From the NCBI GenBank assembly GCA_044228295.1, contig JBGAVE010000008.1:15235-79234 (forward strand): 64,000 nucleotides of DNA. Reading direction: 5' to 3'. The position numbers and the translations under genes were made by a program. Below, in pieces: positions 13,932 through 58,278 of the stretch; position 1 is the first letter of the stretch, and the number at the start of each line of letters is the position of its first letter. The notes beneath the pieces were generated by a model. That model saw only the letters and a program-made list of their open reading frames with translations, did not search any database and had not been told where the DNA came from. This DNA is from Nitrosomonas sp. (GTDB lineage Bacteria; Pseudomonadota; Gammaproteobacteria; Burkholderiales; Nitrosomonadaceae).

Positions 13932-15443
13932 ATGTCACTTGCAGTGTTGTATAGCCGTGCTTTGTCAGGCATGGAAGCGCCGTTAGTGACTGTCGAAACG
14001 CATATCGCTAACGGATTACCTAGTTTTACGATCGTCGGACTTCCCGATACTGAAGTTCGGGAAAGTAAAGATCGCGTTAGATCCGCCTTGCAAAATTCCC
14101 ATTTTAAAATTCCTGCGCAACGAATTACGGTCAATTTAGCGCCTGCTGATTTGCCCAAAGAAAGTGGACGATTCGATCTTCCGATCGCGCTCGGTATCTT
14201 GGCTGCTACAGGACAAGTTCCTAAGGAAGAATTAGAGCAATATGAATGGGCGGGAGAGTTAGCCCTAACCGGAGAATTACGGCCGATTCGGGGCGCATTG
14301 GCAATGACGTATCATGCTGCTCAATCCGGGCGTCGTTTCGTGTTGCCCGAGCAAAATGCTACTGAAGCTGCGTTAGTAAAAAAAGCTACCATCTATGCGG
14401 CAAAATCGTTGCTGCAAATATGTGCACATCTCACAAAGCAAGCACGATTACCAGTTTTTCAGAGTAATTTGCCTCAGGATGTTGGCGATGAAAACAAAGG
14501 CTACCCAGATTTTGAAGATGTTAAAGGGCAAGGACATGCCAAGCGCGCTTTAGAAATCGCTGCCGCCGGAAAACATAGTATTTTGATGGTGGGGCCGCCA
14601 GGAACAGGGAAGTCGATGTTAGCAGCACGTTTTCCTGGAATTTTACCGCCAATGACCGAAGATGAGGCGCTGGAATCGGCTGCAATTCAATCACTGAGTC
14701 AGGGCAGTTTCAATATTTCCGAATGGAAACGCCGACCCTTTCGCGCACCGCATCATACGGCTTCTGGTATTGCACTGGTTGGAGGCGGTAGTTATCCACG
14801 GCCTGGGGAAATTTCTTTAGCACTGCACGGAATATTATTTTTAGACGAATTACCTGAATTCGATCGAAAAGTATTGGAAGTGTTGCGTGAACCATTGGAG
14901 TCAGGAAAAATAACGATTTCTCGAGCCGCTCGTCAAGCCGAGTTTCCTGCCCATTTTCAGTTGGTATCGGCGATGAATCCATGTCCCTGCGGCTACTTGG
15001 GGCACCCCTCTGGCAAATGCCATTGCACCCCCGACCAAATCGCCCGCTATCGCGGCCGAATCTCCGGCCCGTTACTGGATCGCATCGATATGCAGATCGA
15101 AGTCCCCGCCGTACCGCAACAGGAATTGATGAAACAACAAACAACAAGCGAGAAAAGCAGCACCATCCGCCAGCGTGTCGAGAAAGCGCACCAATTGCAG
15201 CTTGATCGGCAAGGAAAAACCAATAGCCGCTTGGGCGTGAAAGAAATCGACCAATTCTGTGCAATCGACAGCGCGAGCGAGAATCTGCTTAAACAAGCCA
15301 TCAGCCGTTTGAATCTATCGGCGCGTGCATATCACCGCATTCTGAAAGTCGCGAGAACGATTGCGGATTTGGCTGGGATCGAGAAAATCAACAATCAACA
15401 CATCGCGGAAGCGATTCAATATCGCAGACTAGACAAGCACTAG
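13932..15443 (+). CDS. comM: YifB/ComM Mg-chelatase-like AAA+ ATPase
   Basis: IVGLPDTEVRES, GPPGTGKS, FLDELPEF, NPCPCG and LSARAYHRILKVARTIAD motifs. Confidence 0.95.
   Translation: MSLAVLYSRALSGMEAPLVTVETHIANGLPSFTIVGLPDTEVRESKDRVRSALQNSHFKIPAQRITVNLAPADLPKESGRFDLPIALGILAATGQVPKEELEQYEWAGELALTGELRPIRGALAMTYHAAQSGRRFVLPEQNATEAALVKKATIYAAKSLLQICAHLTKQARLPVFQSNLPQDVGDENKGYPDFEDVKGQGHAKRALEIAAAGKHSILMVGPPGTGKSMLAARFPGILPPMTEDEALESAAIQSLSQGSFNISEWKRRPFRAPHHTASGIALVGGGSYPRPGEISLALHGILFLDELPEFDRKVLEVLREPLESGKITISRAARQAEFPAHFQLVSAMNPCPCGYLGHPSGKCHCTPDQIARYRGRISGPLLDRIDMQIEVPAVPQQELMKQQTTSEKSSTIRQRVEKAHQLQLDRQGKTNSRLGVKEIDQFCAIDSASENLLKQAISRLNLSARAYHRILKVARTIADLAGIEKINNQHIAEAIQYRRLDKH
14982..15443 (+). 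repeat. comM 3' segment duplicated at 33116-33574 (left island boundary)
   Basis: Homology starts at TGTCC (CPCG codons); 38-bp exact match between 14991-15028 and 33125-33162. Confidence 0.9.
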
Positions 15444-15500
15444 AATTATTACGCCCACTGCTGATATGTAGCGTGAATTTATCTGGAAAATCTTCCTTTC

Positions 15501-15520
15501 AATGTGATATTTCTCACATT
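15501..15520. promoter_or_regulatory. CRP-family consensus box
   Basis: AATGTGA-TATTTC-TCACATT, a perfect TGTGA-N6-TCACA. Confidence 0.65.
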
Positions 15521-15550
15521 TATTTTGAATAAGCTCAATATAAAATTCAG

Positions 15551-15566
15551 ATGTCCAATTAGACAT
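15551..15566. promoter_or_regulatory. Palindromic operator candidate
   Basis: ATGTC-CAATTA-GACAT. Confidence 0.4.
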
Positions 15567-15585
15567 AAATTACTCAACATTCTCA

Positions 15586-15599
15586 TTGATCTACATCAA
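15586..15599. promoter_or_regulatory. FNR-family consensus box
   Basis: TTGAT-CTAC-ATCAA, a perfect TTGAT-N4-ATCAA, about 75 nt upstream of the 15675 start. Confidence 0.65.
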
Positions 15600-15674
15600 C
15601 ATCTAAAATCAGAAACATACGATATGTTGCCAGTTACAGATCATAAGATGACTCAATTTTATTAGGAAGAAATT

Positions 15675-16529
15675 ATGGCACTTATACCCGATGCAAATGT
15701 AGAAGGACCAATTGCCCAACTTCCAAACTTGAATGGTGATCAACTTACGCTAATAGTAGCTGGCGTTACAGTAATCGCTGATTTGAATACGATTATCCGA
15801 ACACCAACCCGACAACTTAATCTTGTAGAAGTCGTAGACCCAACTCCATTCCCAGGACGAGCAGATCCGGGATTTGTTAACGGTTCTGCACAAGCCGATG
15901 GTTCTTACGATACGATAAATGGTATTTTGCGTGCGAACAGGCTTTTTCTTGAACCAGGCGAGCATGTACTGGTAGGGCCAATTGCAAATCCAACCGAGAC
16001 AGGTGCCGTCGTTAATGGTGTCAATGCAGAGCTTACCAATGACACTAGAATTCCTTCCTATCAAATACTCAATGAATTTGGATTCCCTATTCAACCAGCT
16101 TCTATCCCAGTGGACTCAACAACAGCAGCTGAAGGGTATTATGACGGGAATATACTCCGTGCTTTCGCAATTTCAGTGGATGCGCCAGATGCAATATTGA
16201 AAATAAATCCTATTATTCAACCACAGATCTCGCTCTTGCGCGCACGGACCGTTGAAAAAGATAGCACGTACCGGTTAGATATTCGCGGGGCTGTGACGTT
16301 GCATCACTCTCCAGGATTTCAGCCACAAGAGATTGATGTTTATCGATTGGATGATAACAATGTAACAGCATTTCTTGGCAGGGCAAGAACAAGGAGAGCT
16401 CCAGGTACTTCTTTTGGAAAATACGATCAAGAATTCCGTAATCTTCCTGGAGAGCCACCTACACGCATACGAGTAATAAATACTACTGCAATGAATCAGC
16501 CTAGTGCTGATCTCTATGTTGATTTGTGA
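15675..16529 (+). CDS. Hypothetical beta-rich protein, first gene of the multicopper oxidase cluster
   Basis: 284-aa ORF with AGGAAG RBS; no recognisable family. Confidence 0.75.
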   Translation: MALIPDANVEGPIAQLPNLNGDQLTLIVAGVTVIADLNTIIRTPTRQLNLVEVVDPTPFPGRADPGFVNGSAQADGSYDTINGILRANRLFLEPGEHVLVGPIANPTETGAVVNGVNAELTNDTRIPSYQILNEFGFPIQPASIPVDSTTAAEGYYDGNILRAFAISVDAPDAILKINPIIQPQISLLRARTVEKDSTYRLDIRGAVTLHHSPGFQPQEIDVYRLDDNNVTAFLGRARTRRAPGTSFGKYDQEFRNLPGEPPTRIRVINTTAMNQPSADLYVDL

Positions 16530-16603
16530 TTATTGTAAAGATTGTTTGTTAAATTATGGTGTTAGCATGTTTTCTGGTGAATTGGGAGAGGCTTTAACCA
16601 TGC

Positions 16604-16631
16604 TTGACATAATGTTTTTATCAATTAGAAT
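16604..16631 (+). promoter_or_regulatory. Sigma70 promoter candidate for the giant multicopper oxidase
   Basis: TTGACA-N16-TAGAAT, about 85 nt upstream of the ATG at 16715. Confidence 0.5.
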
Positions 16632-16714
16632 TACTATAAGTATCAAAAAAATATCTTTGATCTTCTAACGCAATATTTACATATTGAAGATCAAGAAAAA
16701 TGAGGGGGGTGGCC

Positions 16715-19700
16715 ATGAAGTTCAAACATAAGTTTCTACGGATAGTGATTTCATTGTTAAGCTTTTTTGTTGTTGGTTCTATATCGGCACAAATGCCACA
16801 ATTAAAAGGCAGTTCGAATTCTCTAGTTAAACAACCAGGTTTTCAGAAGCTCGAAAGCTGTCGGAATGCTTTAGTAGCCGATGTGGTGGCAATTGACCAT
16901 CCAATGGTTTTCAATCGACTTGGTGCGCAGAATGTGAACTGGATGATGTATGCGTTGCGTCATGACATCATTGATGTGGCAAGCAATAAAACATTGGATT
17001 ACACAATTGTAGGTGATCAATTATTTGCAAGTGCCAAAGCAAACAATACCAGTCGCGGCATTGCATTAAGACCCGATTTGCGTCCTCGTCCATTGGTACT
17101 TCGTGTGGCAGCAGGGGGTTATCTAAAAGTAAATTTTACTAATTTACTGCATGCGGCATCTAATCCTTTTGATTATCCTGATCAATTTTTAGGTATTCAG
17201 CATCCAACAGAACATTCTCCAATAGACCAACTGGGATTAAGTGCAAGTAATTTGCATAAAACCTATACCCTGGATGATCAAGTGGCGAGTCGTACAGTAG
17301 GATTTCACCCACAGGGACTAGAGTTAGTTAATAGTATGAATGATGACAGCTCTTATGTTGGAAAAAATAGTAACAGCATGGTTGCTCCCGGGCAAACTAA
17401 AACATATTGTTTCTATGCTCCAAAAGAGGGTGCCTACCTGGTTAGTAGTGATGGTGCTGTTTTTGGTGGTGAAGGTACTTCAGGCAATAGTGGCGTTGGG
17501 TTATTCGGTGCTGTAACAGTGCAACCAAGTAGCGGGAAAAATAATAAAAATGGGAATCTAGGAACACGATTTTATCGTGCCCAAGTAACAGAAGAAGAAT
17601 TACGGTTAGCAACTACCGGAACAACGCCAAGCGGACAACCGATCATTAATTACGAGGCAATCTATCCTAATGACTGTCCAACAGGTCCCTTGTGTAAAGA
17701 AGGTAAATCTGGAAAACCTATTCTCAATATGGTGCATAACAATCGTATTATTCACGGAGATATCAATGCATTGATTGTTGGTCCCCATAAGGATGGTAGT
17801 TTTTCAAAAGATACTTATCCGCTAGAATCGCTAGGTGCGAAGAACCCGGCTTTACCTAATCGTCTAGAACCTTTTCGTGAATTTGTATCTATTTTTCACG
17901 ATGAAAATGCTGCAACTCAGGCTTTTCCCTACTTCTTCGAGCATCCTGAATTAAAGCACACGCTTCATGGAGTTCGGGATGCATTTATGATTAATTATGG
18001 TTCTGGGGGTGTTGGTGCAGAAATCATAGCCAATCGATTAAAAGCTGGACCTATGCAGGATTGCCTAGATTGCGCGTATGAAGAGTTCTTTTTGTCATCG
18101 TTTGCGGTCGGCGATGCTGCTATGCTGGTTGATAAACCGACCAATTTGCGAATCAGCCAGTGCCAACCTGAATATCTACCAGGCTCAACAGAATTTAATA
18201 CTTTTTGCGTTCAGCCTCCGGATCAAAAAGCAATGGAAGCTTATTACCCGCATGATCCAGCGAATGTACACCATAGCTACATCGGCGATTTCGTAAAGTT
18301 TCGTAATTTACATTCTGGTAAAGAACAGCACATTTTTCATTTGCACAATCACCAGTGGTTGTTTAATCCCAATGACGATAACTCCAATTATATTGATGCT
18401 CAGGGCATAGGTCCGGGTTCTGGCTACACCTATGAAATTGCCTATGGCGGTTCGGGTAATCGCAATAAGACCGTTGGTGATGCTATTTTCCATTGTCACT
18501 TCTATCCGCATTTTGCACAAGGTATGTGGTATATGTGGCGCAATCATGATGTCTTTGAAGGAGGAACACCACTTGAAGTGAGTCAAACACCTACAGGTTT
18601 TCACAAGGAACCTTTTGGCTTAATGCATGGAAAACCCGCATCAAAATCGAGAGCATTACCTGATGGTGAAATCATTTCAGGAACACCTATCCCTGCTATC
18701 GTGCCATTGCCAGGAAAAGGTATGGCACCAATGCCAGAACCGGTTCATATCACGCAAAAAGTAAATGGATTGGGTTCAAAAGCTGAGTTGGTAAATTCAT
18801 TTAGTGAAAAAACGAAAAATCCAGGTTATCCTTTTTGGGTTGCTGGTGTTACTGAACATGGTAGTCATCAATCATCGATTGGGTCACGCCCAACAACTCC
18901 ACCACTGGATATGTCAAGTATACCTGGCGTAGTCGATGGATGGGATGGGGGATTGCCTCGACATGCGTTAGCAGGCTATCTGGCGGGTGGAGATGCGGAG
19001 TCCAAAATAAGCCGGTTCACAGCTGAAAAGCATCTTAAAAAAGCAAAACCGATTTATTACCCGGAAAAAGGTACTGCTCTTGAGCAAATAGCAATGGAAT
19101 TTCATGCAAAACCTAGACCAGGTCACACAACGAGTGCTATAGACATGGCAGGTAGCGTTTTTGCTTCTTTTTTCGCTACAAATGGTGCAAAAGCGGTTCC
19201 TGGCGCACCCTATAATGAACCTTGTATTGATGATCGGGGAGAATTACTAAAAACTGGGGGAAATGGCCAATTCTTTGGTGGCACACCGGGAACTTATATT
19301 GATGTTGATCCAGCGCTTTTACCTATGGGAATTGAGTTTGGTGCTGACAAACCCCGTGTATACAAAGGCGCTAATCTCCAGCTCGATGTAATATTTAACA
19401 AATTGGGATATCACTATCCGCAGCAACGCATATTGACACTTTGGCAAGATGTGGCCTCACTACTCAATGAAACGCGCCCTCCGGAACCCTTAGTGATACG
19501 AATGAATACATTTGATTGCGCGATGTATGCACACACTAATCTTGTTCCTCATTTTTTCTATGGCGACGATTACCAAATCACAACGCCTACCGACGTTATT
19601 GGGCAACATATTCATTTGCCGAAATGGGATCTGACTTCTGCAGATGGTGGGGCGAATGGATGGAATTATGAGGATGGTACTTTCTCACCGGGTATGGTTC

Positions 19701-22700
19701 GTGAGCGCATTTATGCTATTAATAGCTGGAATGACTCTAACCCAGGAAATACGGTTTCTACACTTGATGGAGTTCTTAAGTTAGAACCATTGGTACATCC
19801 TTATTTCAATGCAACTAATATCCCTAACTTTCAGCAGCCCGATTGTACAAACTTATGGCAAAGTGTGGGGGGCGATGCACACGAATTTGAGGTTCATTAC
19901 GGTATGCGTTACAAATGTGATTGGTTAGGCGCTCGAACCACCCTACAACGCTGGTTTTCTGACCCGCTGGTCAATAAAGAAGGCATACATAGAGGACTAG
20001 GTGTTACTTTTACACACGATCACCTAGGGCCATCAACGCATCAGCAATTAGGGCTTTATGCCACAATGCTGACAGAACCGCCTGGATCTGAATGGCGACA
20101 CAATGAAACTGGCGAGAAGCTTTATAATGCGGCGGTGCGTATGGATGGTGGCCCCACTTCCTGGCAAGCAGTGATAACTGCAAAAAATGGAACTTTGATC
20201 GATTTGGATAAGAATGGAAGCGATGATTCACATCGCGAATTTTTCCTTCAATTTGGTGATTTTCAGCATGCATATGTGAAAGGTGCTTATTATGGCGTGA
20301 CTGAGAAGAAGGGTTATGGCTGGATGTGGGATCCAGCTCAAACAGCTAAACCTACTCCAGACAGTTTTCGCGCAGCAATCAATCCCTCGTTCAGGAAACC
20401 TGCTCAACCGGTGTTCCCAGATATCATTGCTTTTGAGCCCTATTGCCCAGGAGGTAAGGGCACTAGTCCGAATAGCTTACTACCCGGTTCGGTGTATCTC
20501 ACGGCAACGGATTTCAGTAATACGCAATTATATGATGCGTCAGGTAGACCTAACCGTCCCTGCGCTGAAGCGATCTCGGCTGATGATGTCGGTATGATGG
20601 TTGTTAATTATCGCAATGAGCCGATCGGTGCGCGCGTGTACGATCCCATTCAAAACAAACAAGTTACTGGAATTCAAGGAGACCTAGCATTTGCAATGCA
20701 TAATATGAATCGTGCATGGTCACCTCTTAATACTACTAAAGGCCTTGCACCGTATCCCACAGATTTAACTTTTCACATGATTCCCACTGATCCGTTCACT
20801 CCCATTATGCGAGCTTATTCGGGTGATCGAGTACGTGTAAAAGTTCAAGGGGGGTCCCATGAACATGAGCACAATGGTTCCATTAACGCAATGGCTTGGT
20901 TACAAGGGGGGTCTGGTTTCGGACGAGCTCCTCATTCTGGCTGGAAAAATTCCCAGAATACCGGTTTGTCTGAACAATTTACATTTGATGTATCGATTAC
21001 GGACTATTGGAGTGACACCTATTTACATGATCGTATGTATACGGTTGATTCCAGTCAAGACGGTTTATGGAATGGCGTATGGGGTATTTTACGCAGTAAA
21101 AATACTCGAGATGCTGGAGATGATTCACTGGTTACGCTACCTAGTAATCCTATTCCAACAGTGCTTTTGCCAGGACAAGGAATCGGCTCAGATAATGTTT
21201 GCCCAGCAAATGCTAGGGTTCGTTCATATGAAGTTGTCGCTGTACTAGCCAATCGTGCTCTTGATAATTCTCTAGGTGTCACGATTCCTTCAGCACGTAA
21301 TACACAAAATGCTACTCCGGGTTCTTCCAAGCTTAATCCGGGTGGAGGCACGCTTGTCTATAACCCGCGTGCAACAAACATAACCATGATGGTTGATGAT
21401 GGTATGGGAGGGAAAAAACAGGAAGTTTTCGGCGTTGGTCCCCTTCATGATCCTACGGCCATACTTCTTGTGCGTAAGGGAGATTTGGATCTGGCAAACA
21501 AAATTAAACCAGGAAAGCCGGTAGAACCTATCGTGTTAAGAGCTGCGGCTGGGGAATGTATTCAAGTGATTTTGCATAATAAATTACCGGAAAATCCCGA
21601 AGAAATGCCTGATCTTGATGGTTATACTTCGGTTTCTGGGATTATTCACCGTGATACGAACGATCCAAATGGTTCTGTGACATCATTCAATAACAATTTG
21701 ATACGTCCGTCCAACGAGATAGGGCTACATCCTCAACTGGTCCATTATAACGTCCAAACTTATGATGGTAATAACGTTGGTGTCAATAAGCGCAGCACTA
21801 TTAAGCCCGGAGAAACCATCGTTTATCAGTGGTACGCTGGTGCGGTCGAGCTTTCTTCAAATGGAGGATTGGTGTGTGATGATATTGCTAATGATTCGAA
21901 CGCATATGAGAAATTAAGTCTTTTTGCACAGCTTTCCAAAGAATTTAATGGCTTACCGACGCGTTCTCCATTGATAACTTTGCCAGAAGAGCCTCGAAAA
22001 GTTTTTCAAAGGATTATATTTTCATTGTCGAATGAAGATGAAATAAGATTTGATCCAAAAATAGAAGAGCGACTATTTGATATAGTGGTTCAGCAAGGTT
22101 TTTTTAATATCTATGCTGATGCTCTGCAAAATAAAGTAAATACTCTCGACGTAAGTAATCCATCAGATAATGTTAAGCCTGAAGCTTTATTTAGAGAGTT
22201 ATTAGCTACAAAATCTGATAACCAAACGCAATTAATTCAGCGTAGTGCGGATAATGAATCATTATTTGACAGTACGAAATACGTTGATCCAATTAAAGAT
22301 CTTACTTTTGGAAAGATTCAGGAGATTCGAAAAAGTTTGGCAAATAGCTTGATAAGTGGACTTGCCAACGAAACTCAAGCTGAGAGAATTGCTTTAAAAA
22401 TAGCTGATAAGCTTGTGATTAATTATTTTTATGAATCCATAGATTATCTTGCTAAAACTAGTCCCTATGCATGGAGAAGGGATTTTTTCAACGAGAAATT
22501 TAAGCCAGAATTAAATAGAGAAAAAATACGCTTAGTTAGATTAGATAATGCTTGTCGGTATGAACCTATTGAATTTGGCGGCACTAATTTGACACCTCCC
22601 GATCGGATCAAACAAGGACAAAAAGGTGCAGTAGGCGCATTGATTGTTGAACCAGAAGGCGCTTCTTGGTTTAGTAGTTCTATGGATAATGCAATTGATC

Positions 22701-23560
22701 GTCAGAATCCGGGCATGAATCAGTCTAATACACGTAAAACACGAGCTACGGCTACAGTGTTTTATCCTACGAACCAAATTGCCCCTCCTTTTAATTCCAA
22801 ATGGCGGTTTTTCAGAGATCTGGTGATGGTTCATCAGAAAGGGCTTAATTTTCGCTATGGAACAGGACTGCCAGTGCCTAATTTAGCTGCCGAAAAAGAA
22901 AATGCTAATCAAGATCCTATGCAAGTTGCTCCTGAAGATGCTCATGATTCTGGGCATATGGCAATCAATTATGGGTCTGAGCCAATGTGGTTTCGCTTTG
23001 GCTTACCGCCCGATGCTCCTTTTGGCAAGGAAGGATTTGGCGGCGCGCTTAATGCATGGCAAGCATTTAGTAATATTGGCTGTTGTGATAACGGCGGTAC
23101 CGTAGTGAGTGCGGACAAGCTCGCCGCTATAGGTCAGCCAGAACCTTATATTCCGATAATGAAAGTATATACTGGGCAAGAGATGCGGATTCGTTCCTTA
23201 TTACCCACTGGCGTTGGTCGAGCTTCAACCGTAGAGTTGCATGGACATAGCTGGGCACGGGATCCTTATTTGCCTGACCCGACAACGTCGTCTAAATGTA
23301 TCGGTGGAAATCCAATGTCGATGTATTTGAGTGGCCAAGAAAGCATTTCTCCAATGGCGCATTTTGACATGGTATTTCCACGTGCCGGTGGACCGTCATC
23401 TCCGGATCGGAAAAAAGGTGTGTCAGGGGATTATCTCTGGCGCGATCATGGCGGGTTTGGCATTACCAATGGCCTATGGGCATTAGTGAGAGCCGAGCCG
23501 CTTATGTTTGGCATTTTCCCTTTAGCAAAAGATTCTTCTCGGGCGAGTTGTCACCTTTAA
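16715..23560 (+). CDS. Giant secreted multicopper oxidase, MnxG-like (putative Mn(II) oxidase family)
   Basis: Signal peptide; Cu motifs FHPQG, HIFHLHNH, HCHFYPHFAQGM (type 1 site), HIHLP, THDH, HEHEH, LHPQL and LHGH; GAGGGGG RBS before the ATG at 16715. Confidence 0.85.
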   Translation: MKFKHKFLRIVISLLSFFVVGSISAQMPQLKGSSNSLVKQPGFQKLESCRNALVADVVAIDHPMVFNRLGAQNVNWMMYALRHDIIDVASNKTLDYTIVGDQLFASAKANNTSRGIALRPDLRPRPLVLRVAAGGYLKVNFTNLLHAASNPFDYPDQFLGIQHPTEHSPIDQLGLSASNLHKTYTLDDQVASRTVGFHPQGLELVNSMNDDSSYVGKNSNSMVAPGQTKTYCFYAPKEGAYLVSSDGAVFGGEGTSGNSGVGLFGAVTVQPSSGKNNKNGNLGTRFYRAQVTEEELRLATTGTTPSGQPIINYEAIYPNDCPTGPLCKEGKSGKPILNMVHNNRIIHGDINALIVGPHKDGSFSKDTYPLESLGAKNPALPNRLEPFREFVSIFHDENAATQAFPYFFEHPELKHTLHGVRDAFMINYGSGGVGAEIIANRLKAGPMQDCLDCAYEEFFLSSFAVGDAAMLVDKPTNLRISQCQPEYLPGSTEFNTFCVQPPDQKAMEAYYPHDPANVHHSYIGDFVKFRNLHSGKEQHIFHLHNHQWLFNPNDDNSNYIDAQGIGPGSGYTYEIAYGGSGNRNKTVGDAIFHCHFYPHFAQGMWYMWRNHDVFEGGTPLEVSQTPTGFHKEPFGLMHGKPASKSRALPDGEIISGTPIPAIVPLPGKGMAPMPEPVHITQKVNGLGSKAELVNSFSEKTKNPGYPFWVAGVTEHGSHQSSIGSRPTTPPLDMSSIPGVVDGWDGGLPRHALAGYLAGGDAESKISRFTAEKHLKKAKPIYYPEKGTALEQIAMEFHAKPRPGHTTSAIDMAGSVFASFFATNGAKAVPGAPYNEPCIDDRGELLKTGGNGQFFGGTPGTYIDVDPALLPMGIEFGADKPRVYKGANLQLDVIFNKLGYHYPQQRILTLWQDVASLLNETRPPEPLVIRMNTFDCAMYAHTNLVPHFFYGDDYQITTPTDVIGQHIHLPKWDLTSADGGANGWNYEDGTFSPGMVRERIYAINSWNDSNPGNTVSTLDGVLKLEPLVHPYFNATNIPNFQQPDCTNLWQSVGGDAHEFEVHYGMRYKCDWLGARTTLQRWFSDPLVNKEGIHRGLGVTFTHDHLGPSTHQQLGLYATMLTEPPGSEWRHNETGEKLYNAAVRMDGGPTSWQAVITAKNGTLIDLDKNGSDDSHREFFLQFGDFQHAYVKGAYYGVTEKKGYGWMWDPAQTAKPTPDSFRAAINPSFRKPAQPVFPDIIAFEPYCPGGKGTSPNSLLPGSVYLTATDFSNTQLYDASGRPNRPCAEAISADDVGMMVVNYRNEPIGARVYDPIQNKQVTGIQGDLAFAMHNMNRAWSPLNTTKGLAPYPTDLTFHMIPTDPFTPIMRAYSGDRVRVKVQGGSHEHEHNGSINAMAWLQGGSGFGRAPHSGWKNSQNTGLSEQFTFDVSITDYWSDTYLHDRMYTVDSSQDGLWNGVWGILRSKNTRDAGDDSLVTLPSNPIPTVLLPGQGIGSDNVCPANARVRSYEVVAVLANRALDNSLGVTIPSARNTQNATPGSSKLNPGGGTLVYNPRATNITMMVDDGMGGKKQEVFGVGPLHDPTAILLVRKGDLDLANKIKPGKPVEPIVLRAAAGECIQVILHNKLPENPEEMPDLDGYTSVSGIIHRDTNDPNGSVTSFNNNLIRPSNEIGLHPQLVHYNVQTYDGNNVGVNKRSTIKPGETIVYQWYAGAVELSSNGGLVCDDIANDSNAYEKLSLFAQLSKEFNGLPTRSPLITLPEEPRKVFQRIIFSLSNEDEIRFDPKIEERLFDIVVQQGFFNIYADALQNKVNTLDVSNPSDNVKPEALFRELLATKSDNQTQLIQRSADNESLFDSTKYVDPIKDLTFGKIQEIRKSLANSLISGLANETQAERIALKIADKLVINYFYESIDYLAKTSPYAWRRDFFNEKFKPELNREKIRLVRLDNACRYEPIEFGGTNLTPPDRIKQGQKGAVGALIVEPEGASWFSSSMDNAIDRQNPGMNQSNTRKTRATATVFYPTNQIAPPFNSKWRFFRDLVMVHQKGLNFRYGTGLPVPNLAAEKENANQDPMQVAPEDAHDSGHMAINYGSEPMWFRFGLPPDAPFGKEGFGGALNAWQAFSNIGCCDNGGTVVSADKLAAIGQPEPYIPIMKVYTGQEMRIRSLLPTGVGRASTVELHGHSWARDPYLPDPTTSSKCIGGNPMSMYLSGQESISPMAHFDMVFPRAGGPSSPDRKKGVSGDYLWRDHGGFGITNGLWALVRAEPLMFGIFPLAKDSSRASCHL

Positions 23561-25450
23561 ATGAAGTGGAAACTATGTCTGCTTAGTATAATGTTTGCTG
23601 TACCTGTTAAGGCTGAACCTGTTCGGTATGTGGACAAGATTATAGAACGAGAAGGTATTATTATTCGTTTTCGGGTCGAAGCTGTTGAAGATAGCGCAAC
23701 ACCATCTTTGCAAATCGGTCAGAAGGTTCGATTATGGCTTGAAGGTAAGCGTTTAGCTGATGATCAGCCAATCAACAATTGGCAGTTGGGAGCTTGGCTT
23801 GATCGGGAAACTGATGTTATGTCGGGGGCTGTGCCGGTTTGCGGTCAAAGGGTCTCGCGGTATCTGAGTGGCAACCTAATTGAACGCCCATTGCTGGATC
23901 TGACAGGATACTATGTGCTGAGCTTGGATGCTGAATCCAGCGTTTCAGTGTTGGATCCATCGGTTAGTTTTAGCGGACGTAGCAGCTTATACAGTGCGAT
24001 GAAGCTCGATGGAAAAGGATTCGATTGGGTCAAAACCAGTGATGATATGCGATTATATGTGGCATTACCGAATGAAAACAAGCTGGTGATTGCCGATTTG
24101 CAAACACTCAGTGTATTGGATCACTTGGTTTTGTCTGGACAACCTACGCGCCTAGCATTACAGCCTGATGAGCGCTTGCTGTGGGTGGGTTTAACTGGAA
24201 CAAGTCCGCAGGAAAGTGCCATTGAAATCATCGATACCATTCATGATAAATCTGTAACAAGAATTCCTTTATCACCCGGCTATCACGAAATCGCTTTTTC
24301 TAGTGATGGTCGCCATGCTTTTATCAGCAATCGACAAAGCAAATCGATGACTATCGTCGATGCAATCACATTAAAAGTGGTGCGTGAAGTTGATCTGGGT
24401 TTTGAGCCACTTGGTTTGGTTTTTGTAGATAAGCAGTCATTGCTGTGGGTAGTCAATGCCAAGGCTGGGCGCATTCATCGCTTTGACACCAAGGGCAATC
24501 CAATCGACAATCTAGTATTGGAACCCGGTCTAGGACCAATCAAGCTGACGCCGGACGCACGCTATGCTTTGGTAGTCAATCCAAGTCAGCATTGGATTCA
24601 TGTACTGGATGTTGAAACCGGTAAAGAAAAGCATCGCGTTACCCTTTCCGGTCAACCTTACGATATTTTGTTTTCCGACAAATATGCGTACATCCGAACA
24701 TTGCAAAGCGAACAGATTGGAATGTTGTCGCTCAGCAGCCTCGAAAGTGAACAACCGATTATGAAGTTGGTTCCAGCCGGCGCTGGTGCATTATCGGAAA
24801 CGCAGAATCTTCCACGCGCTTCCAGTATGTCACTGACGCTGGATCGTTCCGGCGCCTTCTTCGCAACACCATCCGAACGCACACTCTATCATTATATGGA
24901 GGGGATGAATGCGCCCAATTCCGGTTTAAAAACATTTGGGCATACTCCCATGTCGGCGATGGTGGTACGACGTGGATTGCGTGAGGTTAAACCCGGTCAA
25001 TATTCCGCAGTGATCCGACTGCCATCTGCGGGAAAAATGGTATTGGCTTTAGCAAGCGAAGCTCCGGTATTGAGAGAATGTTTGGGATTGAAGATTGATA
25101 CAACGGTTAACACGAGTAGCGATGATGACATTGTCGTGCACTGGCTCAGTGATGGGATACAAAAAACGAGCACCAATTTACCTGTAGATTTTCGCGTCAA
25201 AGTTAAAGAACAGTCTAAAGACACGGGATCGCCCATCAGTCAATTAAGATTGCGAATTGTTCCGGTAAAAGGTGGTACTGCAGCAATCTGGCCTATGCAA
25301 GCCGACCCCGAAAAACCAGGTGAATGGTTTACTCGCGGTAAGCTCACGCAGAGCGGCGGTTATTACGTTCATATCGAAGGAAATAGACCTGTAAAATCAT
25401 CTTTTTCGACCGTGTTAGTAGAAAAACCAAAAAATCCTTTGGAGAACTAA
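23561..25450 (+). CDS. YncE/YVTN-type beta-propeller secreted protein
   Basis: Signal peptide; repeated propeller blades (QPTRLALQPDERLLWV, IAFSSDGRHAFISN, LTPDARYALVVN); starts immediately after the oxidase stop. Confidence 0.8.
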   Translation: MKWKLCLLSIMFAVPVKAEPVRYVDKIIEREGIIIRFRVEAVEDSATPSLQIGQKVRLWLEGKRLADDQPINNWQLGAWLDRETDVMSGAVPVCGQRVSRYLSGNLIERPLLDLTGYYVLSLDAESSVSVLDPSVSFSGRSSLYSAMKLDGKGFDWVKTSDDMRLYVALPNENKLVIADLQTLSVLDHLVLSGQPTRLALQPDERLLWVGLTGTSPQESAIEIIDTIHDKSVTRIPLSPGYHEIAFSSDGRHAFISNRQSKSMTIVDAITLKVVREVDLGFEPLGLVFVDKQSLLWVVNAKAGRIHRFDTKGNPIDNLVLEPGLGPIKLTPDARYALVVNPSQHWIHVLDVETGKEKHRVTLSGQPYDILFSDKYAYIRTLQSEQIGMLSLSSLESEQPIMKLVPAGAGALSETQNLPRASSMSLTLDRSGAFFATPSERTLYHYMEGMNAPNSGLKTFGHTPMSAMVVRRGLREVKPGQYSAVIRLPSAGKMVLALASEAPVLRECLGLKIDTTVNTSSDDDIVVHWLSDGIQKTSTNLPVDFRVKVKEQSKDTGSPISQLRLRIVPVKGGTAAIWPMQADPEKPGEWFTRGKLTQSGGYYVHIEGNRPVKSSFSTVLVEKPKNPLEN

Positions 25451-26037
25451 TGTACGCGAAATTTAGCGTTATTTTGATCTCGCTGATAGCAACCATAGGG
25501 TGGGCTCAACCGCCTGAAAATTTAAAAAAACACACGAAAATAAGCAACGCACATCAAACACAACTTGTTTTGCCGAATATCATCGTTGTAGACAGTCAGA
25601 ATCGTGAACATCGACTGTTGAATTTATTGCAAGATCAAGTTGCAATTGTTAATTTTGTCTTTACTTCCTGCACGACAATTTGTCCTGTGCTTAGTATGAC
25701 CATGCAAGCTATCGAAAAGCAGTTGCAGAATCAATTGGGGAAAGGTGTTATTTTGATTTCTATTTCTGTCGATCCAACAAGGGATACACCGGAGAAATTA
25801 CGCATATATGCAGAAAAATTAGGTGCAGGGCAGCACTGGTATTGGTTGACCGGAAGAGTGTCAGAGATTAATCAAGTGTTGAAAGCATTTGGAATTCCAG
25901 TCGGACGTCCCGAAGATCATCCGCCGGTTATTCTGGTAGGTAATACAAATTCTGATCATTGGTTACGTTGGGTTGGCATCCCATCCCCAGAAACCATCAT
26001 TGACGCAATTGATGTGGTTGCCAGAGAAAACTTGTAG
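25450..26037 (+). CDS. SCO1/SenC copper chaperone
   Basis: FTSCTTICP CxxxC motif, ISVDPTRDT and a conserved His (EDHPP). Confidence 0.9.
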   Translation: MYAKFSVILISLIATIGWAQPPENLKKHTKISNAHQTQLVLPNIIVVDSQNREHRLLNLLQDQVAIVNFVFTSCTTICPVLSMTMQAIEKQLQNQLGKGVILISISVDPTRDTPEKLRIYAEKLGAGQHWYWLTGRVSEINQVLKAFGIPVGRPEDHPPVILVGNTNSDHWLRWVGIPSPETIIDAIDVVARENL

Positions 26038-26042
26038 AGGAA

Positions 26043-26630
26043 ATGATGAAAAAAGTCACTCTATCACTAGTACTGATATTGGTTAGCTTGATATCAACAA
26101 CCATTCAAGCTTCGGCAACTAATGCACAACCAGAGAATCGACTGGAGCGTGCACGCAATTATTTTGGTGATGATCTTTTAATCGATCAGAATGGGGTGTC
26201 ACATCGATTTGTCAGCGATTTGCTGAGTCAGCATGTGGTATTAATTAATGTTATTTTTACTCACTGCCAGGATGCCTGCCCGATGCAAACTCAAAAACTG
26301 CAAGTCGTTCGGAAACAACTTGGAAAGCATTTTGGCTCTCAGATTGCTTTCTTATCATTATCCGTGGATCCCAAACGTGATGATTCTACTGCACTAAAAG
26401 CTTTTGCAGAGAAGCAGCAGGCTAATGTTCCTGGGTGGTCGTTTCTTACGGCGGATGAAACAACCATGGCAAAAATTTTGGGTCGCCTAAATCAGTGGAC
26501 GGATGATCCTAACAATCATAGTACGTTATTGATTGCTGGCAACGCACGCAATGCGCACTGGGTAAAATTACGACCAGATTCACCGCCTGAACGCATTGTG
26601 GCTGATTTACTTCGTTTGATTGGACAGTAA
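26043..26630 (+). CDS. SCO1/SenC copper chaperone (second copy)
   Basis: FTHCQDACP CxxxC motif, LSVDPKRDD and NNHST. Confidence 0.9.
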   Translation: MMKKVTLSLVLILVSLISTTIQASATNAQPENRLERARNYFGDDLLIDQNGVSHRFVSDLLSQHVVLINVIFTHCQDACPMQTQKLQVVRKQLGKHFGSQIAFLSLSVDPKRDDSTALKAFAEKQQANVPGWSFLTADETTMAKILGRLNQWTDDPNNHSTLLIAGNARNAHWVKLRPDSPPERIVADLLRLIGQ

Positions 26631-26632
26631 AA

Positions 26633-27991
26633 GTGCTGCGATTGCACTATGTTTTTTTTCTATTTAGTTTCTGCTTAATTAGTCCTATTAACCTTGCACT
26701 GGCAACTAGTTCAATAGACCTTGGACGTTCAATCTATGAAAAAGGCGTCGGTCGAGATGGCAGAGAAATCGGTGCAATAGGACATGGCAGTGTTTCCTTG
26801 AAAGGTGCTGCTATAGCGTGTATCGGTTGTCACGGTATTGATGCGCGTGGCGGTGGCGAAGCCTTTGTTCAAGTGCCCGATATTCGTTGGATGAATCTCA
26901 GTAAACAATACCCAGCAAGGCGTATGGGGGCTACCGAAACATCCTACGATCAATCAAGTTTCTCCACGGCAGTGCGAACCGGCATAACGGCGACTGAGAG
27001 AAAATTAGATCCGGTAATGCCACGTTTTGATTTGGCAGACGATGAAATCAATGGCTTGATCGTATATCTTAGCTCCATTGATCAATTAAAAAATGCAGAA
27101 CAAGCTCGGTTAGTTATTCTTGGTTTGCTTCCCAAGCCAGGTCGGAACGCTCTCGCTGATGCGTTGGATTCGAAACTTAAAAATTGTTCTCCGAATGAAA
27201 ATGGTTTTCCGATTGCAGCCATCGACACGATTTATTTTGATACGCCAGAAGATGCAATTATTAAGTTAATGGAGCGTTTGAAAGAAAATCCAAATGCGCT
27301 GATTCTCGCGCCTTTCTTGCTGGGTTGGGAACATCAATATGCTAAAGCGATGCAACAATACAATGATGTGCCAACAGTTCTACCATTCTCCCTGTTAAAT
27401 CCACCCGATGAGAACAACTGGATTTTCTCCTTCCCAGGTCTCGAATCTCAAATATTAGCTTTACTAAAATCTGCAAAAGCAGAAGGCTATACGCAATTAC
27501 GCATTTACTCTGAGCCAGAAAATACCCTTGGCGTAAAACTCGCTACAGTCGCTATTGAAATGGCTAATGCGCATGGAATGTCGACCATAGCAGATGTATC
27601 AGAAAGAACGCATAAACAAGGAAAGATTGCTTCATTATGGCTAAAACAATTTAACCCAAATCAGGTAGAACAGAGCTTACTAAAAGATGAGCTGATGCTT
27701 GTACCGGTTCTGTTTTTCAAACCTAATCAATCGAACGAAAACTCTCAAAAGAATCTGCTGCCACAACGGCACATAGCTTACCCATATAATCCAAAAGTTG
27801 GTGAAAATGGAACATGGCGTAAGCCAGTCGATGTTTGGGCTGGGGCGGGTTGTAAATTTTTGTCACTCATTGGCGAAAAATCGCTAAGTCTCAATAAACT
27901 ACCAGAAATCTTAAAATGGGAGGATCATCTCTTTTTATATAACAGGCCCAATCTTGATTTACTCTCAGATCAGGTGTTTATTTATAAGTGA
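26633..27991 (+). CDS. Cytochrome c fused to a periplasmic-binding-protein-like domain
   Basis: Signal peptide, CIGCH heme motif, MPRF axial Met; C-terminal alpha/beta region. Confidence 0.8.
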   Translation: MLRLHYVFFLFSFCLISPINLALATSSIDLGRSIYEKGVGRDGREIGAIGHGSVSLKGAAIACIGCHGIDARGGGEAFVQVPDIRWMNLSKQYPARRMGATETSYDQSSFSTAVRTGITATERKLDPVMPRFDLADDEINGLIVYLSSIDQLKNAEQARLVILGLLPKPGRNALADALDSKLKNCSPNENGFPIAAIDTIYFDTPEDAIIKLMERLKENPNALILAPFLLGWEHQYAKAMQQYNDVPTVLPFSLLNPPDENNWIFSFPGLESQILALLKSAKAEGYTQLRIYSEPENTLGVKLATVAIEMANAHGMSTIADVSERTHKQGKIASLWLKQFNPNQVEQSLLKDELMLVPVLFFKPNQSNENSQKNLLPQRHIAYPYNPKVGENGTWRKPVDVWAGAGCKFLSLIGEKSLSLNKLPEILKWEDHLFLYNRPNLDLLSDQVFIYK

Positions 27992-28042: not shown

Positions 28043-28456
28043 ATGGTGATGGAAATCACCGAAACTCAATATCAACAGATCGAACACTGCATGCCGCGCC
28101 AGCGTGGCAATGTCAGTCATTCCAATCTACAAATTCTCAATGCTATTCTGTATGTTACCGAACATGGTTGCAAATGGCGCGGACTACCCAAACGCTTCGG
28201 TAACTGGCATACCATCTATACCCGAATGAATCGATGGACAAAGAGTGGCGTGCTGCAAAAAGTTTTTGAGCAGTTGCAGCAACAACAAATCATTCGCATC
28301 AAAATTGAAGCCGTTTCGATAGATAGCACCAGCATCAAAGTGCATCCTGATGGTATTGGTGCATTAAAAAAAACGGCCCGCAATCCATCGGTAAGTCCAG
28401 ATGCGGTTGGACCACCAAAATTCATCTGGTTGCCGCAGATTCCAGAGCAGCCATAA
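28043..28456 (+). CDS. IS5 transposase OrfA
   Basis: GCKWRGLPKRFGNWHTIYTRMNRW and IDSTSIKVH. Confidence 0.88.
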   Translation: MVMEITETQYQQIEHCMPRQRGNVSHSNLQILNAILYVTEHGCKWRGLPKRFGNWHTIYTRMNRWTKSGVLQKVFEQLQQQQIIRIKIEAVSIDSTSIKVHPDGIGALKKTARNPSVSPDAVGPPKFIWLPQIPEQP

Positions 28457-28479
28457 TCTTTGCCTTATCTCCGGGGCAT

Positions 28480-28806
28480 GTGCATGATGCGCCGGAAGGA
28501 CGGCAACTCCTCCTGGCGCTTGGCCCCGTCACTTCACCTACTCATCTACTGATGGATCGCGCTTATGAAGGTGATCAAACCAGACAACTTGCACTGGAGC
28601 TCGGTTATATCCCGGTTGTCCCGCCCAAAACTAATCGGTTGGAGCCCTGGGAATATGACCGCGCCATGTACAAAAAACGCAATGAAATCGAAAGATTATT
28701 CCGCAGACTCAAAGGATTTCGTCGAATATTCTCCAGATTCGACAAACCGGATGTCATCTTTCTCTCTTTCATCCATTTCGCTCTTATCGTTGAAGCACTT
28801 AGGTAG
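28480..28806 (+). CDS. IS5 transposase OrfB (joined to OrfA by a probable -1 frameshift)
   Basis: MDRAYE and YKKRNEIERLFRRLKGFRRI DDE motifs. Confidence 0.85.
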   Translation: MHDAPEGRQLLLALGPVTSPTHLLMDRAYEGDQTRQLALELGYIPVVPPKTNRLEPWEYDRAMYKKRNEIERLFRRLKGFRRIFSRFDKPDVIFLSFIHFALIVEALR

Positions 28807-32646: not shown

Positions 32647-33099
32647 TTACCTTCTCATATCTTCAAAAACCACTTTCGCATCTATACCCAGAAATGAAGC
32701 AATTAATCGCCGATGTTCATGCTTCATAATCGTCCCACCACACTCCCAACTTGACCAGGTACAAGGATCAACACCTGGATTCTTGGCCGCAACTTTCTGC
32801 GACCACCCCAAGGATCTCCGCTTGGTCAACAACAACTCAGCAATCGAACTTGGATTGGGTAATGTAGGATCATAACCAAGAAACTGAATTAATTTTCCAG
32901 TGTGGTTAATACTTGGTTTCCGGTAATTCAATTCCCAGTTCAGAACTGTTTCGGCAGCAACTCCTAATAGCTTGGCTAATTGGGGTTGGGGCAATTTAAG
33001 AAAAAGTCTACGTTTTAATACATGCTCACCAAGGGTTTTAGGCGCAAAATCATAAGGCTTAGGAATGAATGACTTAAGAGAAATCCGGGTATATTGCAA
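32647..33099 (-). CDS. Tandem XRE helix-turn-helix protein
   Basis: Two HTH-like units (TLGEHVLKRR..QLAKLLGV..TVLNWE and LLTKRRSLGWSQ..TWSSWE). Confidence 0.75.
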   Translation of the reverse strand: MQYTRISLKSFIPKPYDFAPKTLGEHVLKRRLFLKLPQPQLAKLLGVAAETVLNWELNYRKPSINHTGKLIQFLGYDPTLPNPSSIAELLLTKRRSLGWSQKVAAKNPGVDPCTWSSWECGGTIMKHEHRRLIASFLGIDAKVVFEDMRR

Positions 33100-33115
33100 A
33101 AAGGCAACGCAACTC

Positions 33116-33574
33116 TGTCCTTGTGGCTACTTGGGGCACCCCTCTGGCAAATGCCATTGCACGCCCGATCAAATCGCCTGCTATCGCTGCCGAATCTCCG
33201 TTCCGTTACTGGATCGGATTGATATTCAAATTGAAGTACCTGCAATTCCACAGCAAGAACTTATCCGTCAAAATACCAAAGGAGAGAAAAGCGCCGCCAT
33301 TCGTAAGCGTGTTGAGAAAGCGTATCAACGACAGCTTGATCGTCAGGGAAAAAGTAATAATCAGTTAAGCGTCAAAGAAATAGAGCAGTTTTGCACGATT
33401 GATAGCATCAGTGAAAATTTATTGAAGCAAGCAATCAGTCGCTTGAATCTATCCGCGCGAGCATATCATCGTATCCTGAAAGTCGAGAGAACGATTGCAG
33501 ATTTAGCGGGGTCCGAGAAAATTACTAACCAGCATATTGCAGAAGCAATTCAGTATCGTAGGCTGAATAGGTAA
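33116..33574 (+). pseudogene. comM: Displaced 3' fragment of comM (right island boundary)
   Basis: CPCGYLGHPSGKCHC...IAEAIQYRRL with no 5' part; substitutions at residues conserved in the intact copy (IACY, RCR, KVER). Confidence 0.92.
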
Positions 33575-58089: not shown

Positions 58090-58278
58090 TTCTACCAAAA
58101 TGACATGCAACAACTGTCATTTTGATATTTCTCACTACCACTACAGCTAAATTCTTGTTGAAGTAGCAAAACAATTATCGTTACCCAACTCAACACTAAA
58201 GAACTGGGTTAATGCCCACAAATAACGAGAGCTTTGCTAGAGTGACAAGCATCAGAAGCCGCTGACTAAGCTTGAGTT

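Follow-up and report, generated by a model that had tools for sequence, protein, structure and literature searches.

The class II CRP promoters of Escherichia coli (galP1, the melR type, and the synthetic CC(-41.5)), together with their Vfr, Clp, GlxR, and HcpR counterparts, are the closest described systems to the promoter reported here. CRP-type sites (GTGA...TCAC) are separated from FNR-type sites (TTGA...TCAA) by G versus T, and in FNR/ANR class II promoters the dyad TTGAT-N4-ATCAA is centred at -41.5. The mnxG operon of Pseudomonas putida GB-1 is under MnxS1/MnxS2/MnxR, sigma54, and FleQ control. An earlier sequence-only reading of the DNA studied here had stated that Pseudomonas mnx genes use the sigma54 activator MnxR, and a 2026 review bears this out: the P. 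putida mnxG and mcoA promoters carry sigma54 sites and depend on MnxR (PMC13689576).

The locus described here lies in a 64-kb stretch of Nitrosomonas DNA (the window, to which all coordinates refer). Like the E. coli class II CRP promoters, its putative promoter combines a poor -35 region with a 16-bp TGTGA-N6-TCACA site, centred some 41.5 to 42.5 bp upstream of the predicted start, and with a TAnnnT -10 hexamer at a fixed distance. It differs from them in its host, a betaproteobacterial ammonia oxidiser in which an Eco-type CRP is not expected (PMC12531629), and in its target, which is a metal-oxidase-like cluster and not a catabolic gene. With the P. putida GB-1 operon it shares a giant MnxG-type multicopper oxidase, SCO1/SenC, and accessory genes (PMC13689576), but it has no sigma54 -24/-12 element (TGGCAC-N5-TTGC), appearing to carry a CRP-type class II promoter instead, and it starts with an extra gene for a 284-aa protein that was detected only in Nitrosomonas-type sequences. 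The proposed mechanism, class II activation by a member of the CRP/FNR superfamily, is a textbook one; the novelty lies in the target and the host. On the comparisons given below, the control of MnxG appears to be rewired relative to Pseudomonas, and this across Nitrosomonas.

Materials and Methods

Palindromes were found by direct reading of the window and by pattern searches, and chance levels were taken from 300 dinucleotide-preserving shuffles of the window. Footprinting took in every homologue of the 284-aa protein with upstream DNA, all of which were fetched; the ten loci with this gene are the window, L001, L002, L003, L005, L007, L008, L009, L011, and L012, and the identity of the 284-aa protein across them goes from 95% down to about 50%. 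For the scan of MnxG, the N-terminal 700 residues were used as query, which gave 80 loci from many phyla.

Results

The sequence-only reading had placed its palindromes at the head of a putative metal oxidase cluster, and that this cluster is of the MnxG type was supported by an NF041487 match and by the SCO1/SenC, beta-propeller, and cytochrome c-domain genes. All three palindromes are housed in a spacer of 231 bp (15444-15674) between a yifB/comM-type AAA ATPase gene (13932-15443; TIGR00368, 658 bits) and the 284-aa ORF, which is the first gene of the cluster (15675-16529, + strand). The 284-aa protein has no Pfam or NCBIfam match and only 12 homologues among 5.8 billion proteins, the named ones being from Nitrosomonas MAGs. 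Its AF2 model is confident and all-beta (pLDDT 88), and Foldseek against the PDB with this model returned only generic Ig-like or beta-sandwich partial matches. The next gene on the + strand (16700-23560) encodes the MnxG-like giant multicopper oxidase of 2286 aa, which by its score is a relative of the NF041487 family and is not called an equivalog (1981 bits, below the cut-off of 3100). In the genome contigs database, 529 relatives were confirmed. The downstream genes (23561-27991), also on the + strand, encode a YVTN beta-propeller protein (23561-25450), two SCO1/SenC proteins (25450-26037 and 26043-26630), and a protein with a cytochrome c domain (26633-27991), with which the oxidase cluster ends. 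Nitrosomonas MAGs provide the nearest relatives of the locus. A duplicate of the comM 3' end is present at 33065-33574, and the oxidase cluster is read as lying on an island inserted in comM, with the CRP-type box at its left edge.

The spacer of 170 bp before mnxG carries a strong sigma70-like promoter sequence on the + strand (TTGACA-16-TAGAAT, 16604-16631) with 11 of 12 consensus matches, and its counterpart in L013 reads TTGGCA...TAGAAT. This may be a second mnxG promoter, independent of the box. Directly after the oxidase cluster, two consecutive ORFs of 137 and 108 aa (28043-28806) have the appearance of an IS5-type transposase gene in two pieces. At 28045, a GTGA-N6-TCAC with a perfect core was rejected as a further box, as it falls in the transposase ORF, at the start codon region.

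The three palindromes that had been reported are present at their positions and are all perfect. The CRP-type dyad AATGTGA-TATTTC-TCACATT (15501-15520) has its core TGTGA-N6-TCACA at 15503-15518; the third palindrome, ATGTC-CAATTA-GACAT, is at 15551-15566, and the FNR-type dyad TTGAT-CTAC-ATCAA at 15586-15599 (none is assigned to a strand). The centres of the CRP-like and FNR-like dyads (15510.5 and 15592.5) are indeed 82 bp apart. By chance, 64 kb should hold 0.067 exact copies of TGTGA-N6-TCACA and 0.25 of TTGAT-N4-ATCAA. None of the 300 shuffles contained the longer, 20-bp dyad AATGTGA-N6-TCACATT, and 21% of them had one or more exact TTGAT-N4-ATCAA. When arbitrary 5-N(4-8)-5 palindromes were counted in the spacer, 5 were observed against 2.45 +/- 1.8 expected, a number that was reached by 12% of the shuffles. 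Of the three palindromes, only the CRP-type box is statistically remarkable by itself. Across the window, TGTGA-N6-TCACA with up to two mismatches is at chance level (27 matches, 31.7 expected). For TTGAT-N4-ATCAA with up to one mismatch, 15 sites were counted in the whole window against 5.6 expected, and none of 100 shuffles reached 15; at least three of the 15 sites are intragenic, and the excess may be an effect of codon usage and not an FNR regulon. A hybrid FNR/CRP-type dyad, TTTGATATTTCTCACT, is present at 58121-58136 with the same spacer, TATTTC, as the main box; it lies in a non-coding stretch, adjoins a MITE-like element, and is about 420 bp upstream of rimP-nusA.

The CRP-type box was found, with at most one mismatch in TGTGA-N6-TCACA, upstream of the 284-aa gene in all ten loci, at 85-345 bp from the start codon (85-370 bp over all promoters compared) and behind upstream neighbours that vary (yifB, a SnoaL-like ORF, alanine dehydrogenase). 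In the five close relatives with alignable leaders, the box varies at its inner edge only. Seven promoter lineages too diverged to align were compared with the box as anchor: the ten arm positions were identical in six or seven of the seven and the flanks in three or four, the box being the sole conserved block across them. Its most constant core is GTGA...TCAC, and the G at the discriminating position was counted as support for a CRP-type box. The box is also found directly before mnxG in four Nitrosomonas/beta-proteobacterial loci that are without the 284-aa gene (L014, L015, L020, and L023), and it is perfect in L020, which is Nitrosomonas sp. JL21. Altogether, the promoters of seven of the nine Nitrosomonadaceae-type mnxG loci carry it, against about 0.85 matches expected in the same DNA; in other taxa, about 190 kb of DNA gave four matches, no more than chance would. 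By this comparison, the CRP-type box is a strongly conserved cis-element in activator position.

In L008 (3001-6855), no mnxG follows the homologue of the 284-aa gene (about 50% identity), which nevertheless retains a perfect box. Genes for a histidine kinase with a PAS domain and for a response regulator that combines GGDEF and EAL lie next to it on the other strand. The homology between the promoter of this stand-alone gene and those of mnxG in L020 and L023 is plain to see (ATGTGATTTTTnTCACAGCCCAT).

The other two palindromes behave differently from the box. None of the nine other promoters of the 284-aa gene has TTGAT-N4-ATCAA with up to one mismatch, and none of the nine has kept the ATGTC dyad. 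At the aligned FNR positions, the five close relatives read ATGTT..ATCAA, TGAGT..AGCAA, TTGGT..GTCAA, TTGGC..ATCAA, and TATCT..ATTTAC, so that the dyad, a perfect consensus in the window, is degenerate in every alignable relative. Both dyads are most likely recent, strain-specific features of the leader that arose by chance. Phylogenetic footprinting, which had been proposed with the sequence-only reading, thus gave a divided answer: the CRP-type box is conserved, and the FNR-like and ATGTC dyads are not. The stack of CRP, FNR, and third palindromes that had been described is not supported, since two of its three dyads are seen in no other promoter, the five alignable relatives included.

In 13 of the 14 promoters, the first base of a TAnnnT hexamer is found 22-23 nt past the box, a register that places the centre of the box at -41.5/-42.5, the class II position. 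In the window, the predicted -10 is TAAAAT (15541-15546, + strand), which overlaps TATAAA at 15539-15544; in L015 it is a perfect TATAAT in register with the box. The -35 region of the window, ATTTAT (15518-15523), was judged poor by reading the sequence, and it is poor in the other lineages too. The predicted start zone on the + strand is 15551-15568, with the start at about 15553 from geometry, for a leader of about 120 nt; the third palindrome would then extend from about -2 to +14 and the FNR-type dyad from about +34 to +47. A good Shine-Dalgarno sequence, AGGAAG (15664-15669, + strand), ends 5 nt before the ATG at 15675, in a region that is conserved in the alignment of close relatives (group A).

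No sigma54-type GG-N10-GC is present on the + strand of 15444-15674, and sigma54 control of this locus was rejected on this account. In the spacer before mnxG (16530-16699), the best sigma54 site carries five mismatches. A riboswitch or structured leader was also rejected, since the leader has no Rfam match and no stable fold (the fold is unremarkable, z-score +0.48). The 5' leader of the 284-aa gene in L003 (Nitrosomonas MAG JBEBHG010000006.1) is interrupted, after the promoter and ahead of the ribosome-binding site, by some 170 bp (790-960) whose ends are long inverted repeats (GCGGGGTGGACGGTTAGCTCCACC ... GGTGGAGCTAACCGTCCACCCCGC). With a copy of CAATTTTA on either side, this insert resembles a MITE that has duplicated 8 bp of its target.

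The exact sequence was found in many activated-sludge metagenomes and metatranscriptomes, and the 284-aa gene is transcribed in the activated-sludge metatranscriptomes. RNA contigs over the 5' part of this gene start at 15565-15627 in 9 of the 11 metatranscriptome/transcriptome runs. The earliest starts are at 15565 (X31), 15567 (X26), and 15568 (X27), followed by 15579 (X32), 15584 (X33), 15589 (X29), 15590 (X34), 15617 (X36), and 15627 (X35, limited by an adapter). In seven runs, the contigs thus begin at 15565-15590 against a predicted start of about 15553, these being assembled contigs of low depth and not mapped 5' ends. The contig of X28 starts at 15524 with 8 unmatched letters. Separate RNA contigs from yifB end at 15484, 15513, and 15557, and read-through from yifB occurs. 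In four DNA runs of similar depth, one unbroken, variant-free contig covers 15300-16100; the breaks in the RNA are therefore not due to strain variation. The RNA contigs fit a start at or shortly before 15565 and not a sole start near 15634. Those that begin at 15565-15584 contain the FNR-like box, which consequently lies inside the transcript. Two further RNA contigs, X30 (16325-16711) and X29 (16495-16681), span the spacer between the 284-aa gene and mnxG, which indicates read-through from upstream into mnxG.

With phmmer (E <= 1-10) and approximate E. coli CRP and FNR queries, no CRP/FNR-family ORF was found in the window or in the roughly 90 fetched loci; the regulator would thus act in trans and not be carried with the cluster. 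In two Nitrosomonas MAGs, a four-cysteine FNR was the only CRP/FNR homologue that a published survey found (PMC8510549, Table S4). Eco-type CRP is reportedly restricted to Gammaproteobacteria, with "CRP-like" proteins being widespread (PMC12531629), which makes membership of this promoter in an E. coli-type cAMP-CRP regulon doubtful. Our literature search on Nitrosomonas CRP, cAMP signalling, and the regulation of NE0315/mnxG found almost nothing.

Discussion

From the box, its conservation, its fixed distance to the -10 hexamer, the poor -35 region, the lack of a sigma54 element, and RNA contigs that start a little past the predicted start, we infer binding by a CRP/FNR-family protein, activation, and a sensed signal, which might be O2, NO, or a cyclic nucleotide. 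With a conserved CRP-type box in activator position, control by a member of the CRP/FNR superfamily is the best reading of this promoter. A dimeric regulator of this superfamily, encoded elsewhere in the genome, would bind the 15503-15518 dyad through its GTGA-N6-TCAC core. The bound box would stand in for the missing -35 of a sigma70 promoter with the -10 TAAAAT at 15541-15546, and the regulator, at about -41.5/-42.5, would activate in the class II manner. Transcripts would begin near 15553 with some 120 nt of leader and would extend across the 284-aa gene to the genes of the MnxG-like oxidase cluster, and the oxidase may have an additional promoter of its own at 16604-16631. We regard this model, class II activation of the promoter at the head of the cluster by a CRP/FNR-family protein via the CRP-type box, as probable though far from settled. 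The wiring to the CRP/FNR family proposed in the sequence-only reading is therefore retained for the CRP-type box, conserved at the class II position, and given up for the FNR part, whose dyad is strain-specific and within the transcript.

Several other explanations have to be weighed against this model. The box could be the operator of a repressor, the dimer at -50 to -33 occluding the -35 region of a promoter that would otherwise fire by itself. The box does overlap this region, a site centred at -41.5 could equally well block RNA polymerase, and the conservation data are compatible with activation and repression alike. A poor -35 (ATTTAT in the window, and poor in other lineages) is nevertheless usual for activator-dependent promoters, and the exact 22-23 nt register of the -10 hexamer (13/14) is required by class II activation and needless for a repressor, so that we hold repression to be unlikely. 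The box might also be bound by a dimer from outside the CRP/FNR superfamily, such as a Rex-type or other helix-turn-helix factor, and the failure to find a CRP/FNR-family ORF in the window or the roughly 90 fetched loci would agree with this. The Rex operator TTGTGAA-N4-TTCACAA does contain TGTGA-N6-TCACA. It needs, however, an A after TGTGA and a T before TCACA, where the boxes of the seven lineages have T/G/C and C/A/T/G, and a Rex-type operator was rejected on these flanking positions; moreover, Rex-type repressors are not known from Betaproteobacteria. The class II register also suits activators of the CRP/FNR type, and a dimer of another family seems to us distinctly improbable. That the box binds no protein at all, being a hairpin (a terminator or insulator of the upstream gene), the end of a mobile island, or a product of chance, is scarcely credible. 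A 7-bp stem can be drawn and the box is at the left edge of the comM island, but it is kept where the upstream gene is different and no island edge is nearby, in L007 and L011 mismatches disrupt the stem with no compensatory changes, and its place is always 85-370 bp ahead of a start codon, with a -10 hexamer in the fixed register. By its conservation, the stem-breaking mismatches, and the -10 register, this explanation appears close to refuted.

The sequence-only reading itself held that the three dyads cooperate, with CRP- and FNR-type proteins phased by 82 bp, a third factor between them, and an FNR-driven start near 15634. In its favour, and as in FNR/ANR class II promoters, the FNR dyad (15586-15599) is perfect and has a hexamer, TATGTT (15623-15628), in class II register; FNR homologues are moreover present in Nitrosomonas MAGs (PMC8510549). 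Against it, and unlike in those promoters, the dyad has no conserved counterpart and is itself transcribed as part of the leader: neither it nor the middle dyad is found in any of nine other promoters, including the five with alignable leaders, chance alone would supply 0.25 perfect FNR dyads per 64 kb, and the RNA contigs start upstream of the FNR-like box and continue through it. An FNR-driven start near 15634 is at odds with contigs that begin at 15565-15590, and the 82-bp phasing, correctly measured, is left without support as a meaningful distance when one of its two boxes is strain-specific and transcribed. We therefore consider such cooperation very unlikely; a second, weaker start near 15634 could exist. 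Perfect consensus matches such as this FNR box can be strain-level accidents.

Returning to class II activation through the CRP-type box, a more specific and rather doubtful possibility is that a "CRP-like" regulator of Nitrosomonas, with no orthology to Eco-CRP and perhaps sensing a cyclic nucleotide from envelope-linked cyclases, has a small class II regulon (TGTGA-N6-TCACA) and switches on extracellular or surface functions, among them the MnxG cluster and the 284-aa gene; the new FNR operator of this strain could then add an oxygen-dependent veto. If this were true, second-messenger signalling, and not sigma54/MnxR, would decide when nitrifiers deploy the oxidase. Homology is a poor guide to the substrate of MnxG-type oxidases, and a conserved, well-placed box offers an experimental handle. 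Knowledge of the binding protein and of its signal would reveal under which conditions the oxidase is expressed in Nitrosomonas. It would also show one operon under different control, by sigma54/MnxR in Pseudomonas, apparently in Aromatoleum, and in some Nitrospira, and by a CRP-type activator in Nitrosomonas.

Near-consensus sigma54 elements (TGGCAC-N5-TTGC, one mismatch) precede mnxG by a few hundred bp in loci from Nitrospira, Aromatoleum, and Zoogloeaceae (L029:2142, L030:2143, L068:2311, L069:1200, L078:2146, and L076:1897), which suggests Pseudomonas-like sigma54 control in the Aromatoleum and Zoogloeaceae loci and in some of those from Nitrospira. With such elements in some lineages and the CRP-type box in Nitrosomonas, the mnxG operon appears to be wired differently in different lineages. 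In two Methylomonas-type mnxG loci (L018:950-990 and L019:2095-2135), a TGTGA-N14-TCACA site (TGTGAATTTGATAnATAGTTCACA) is present about 200 bp upstream of mnxG; its arms are the same as those of the Nitrosomonas box and its spacing differs.
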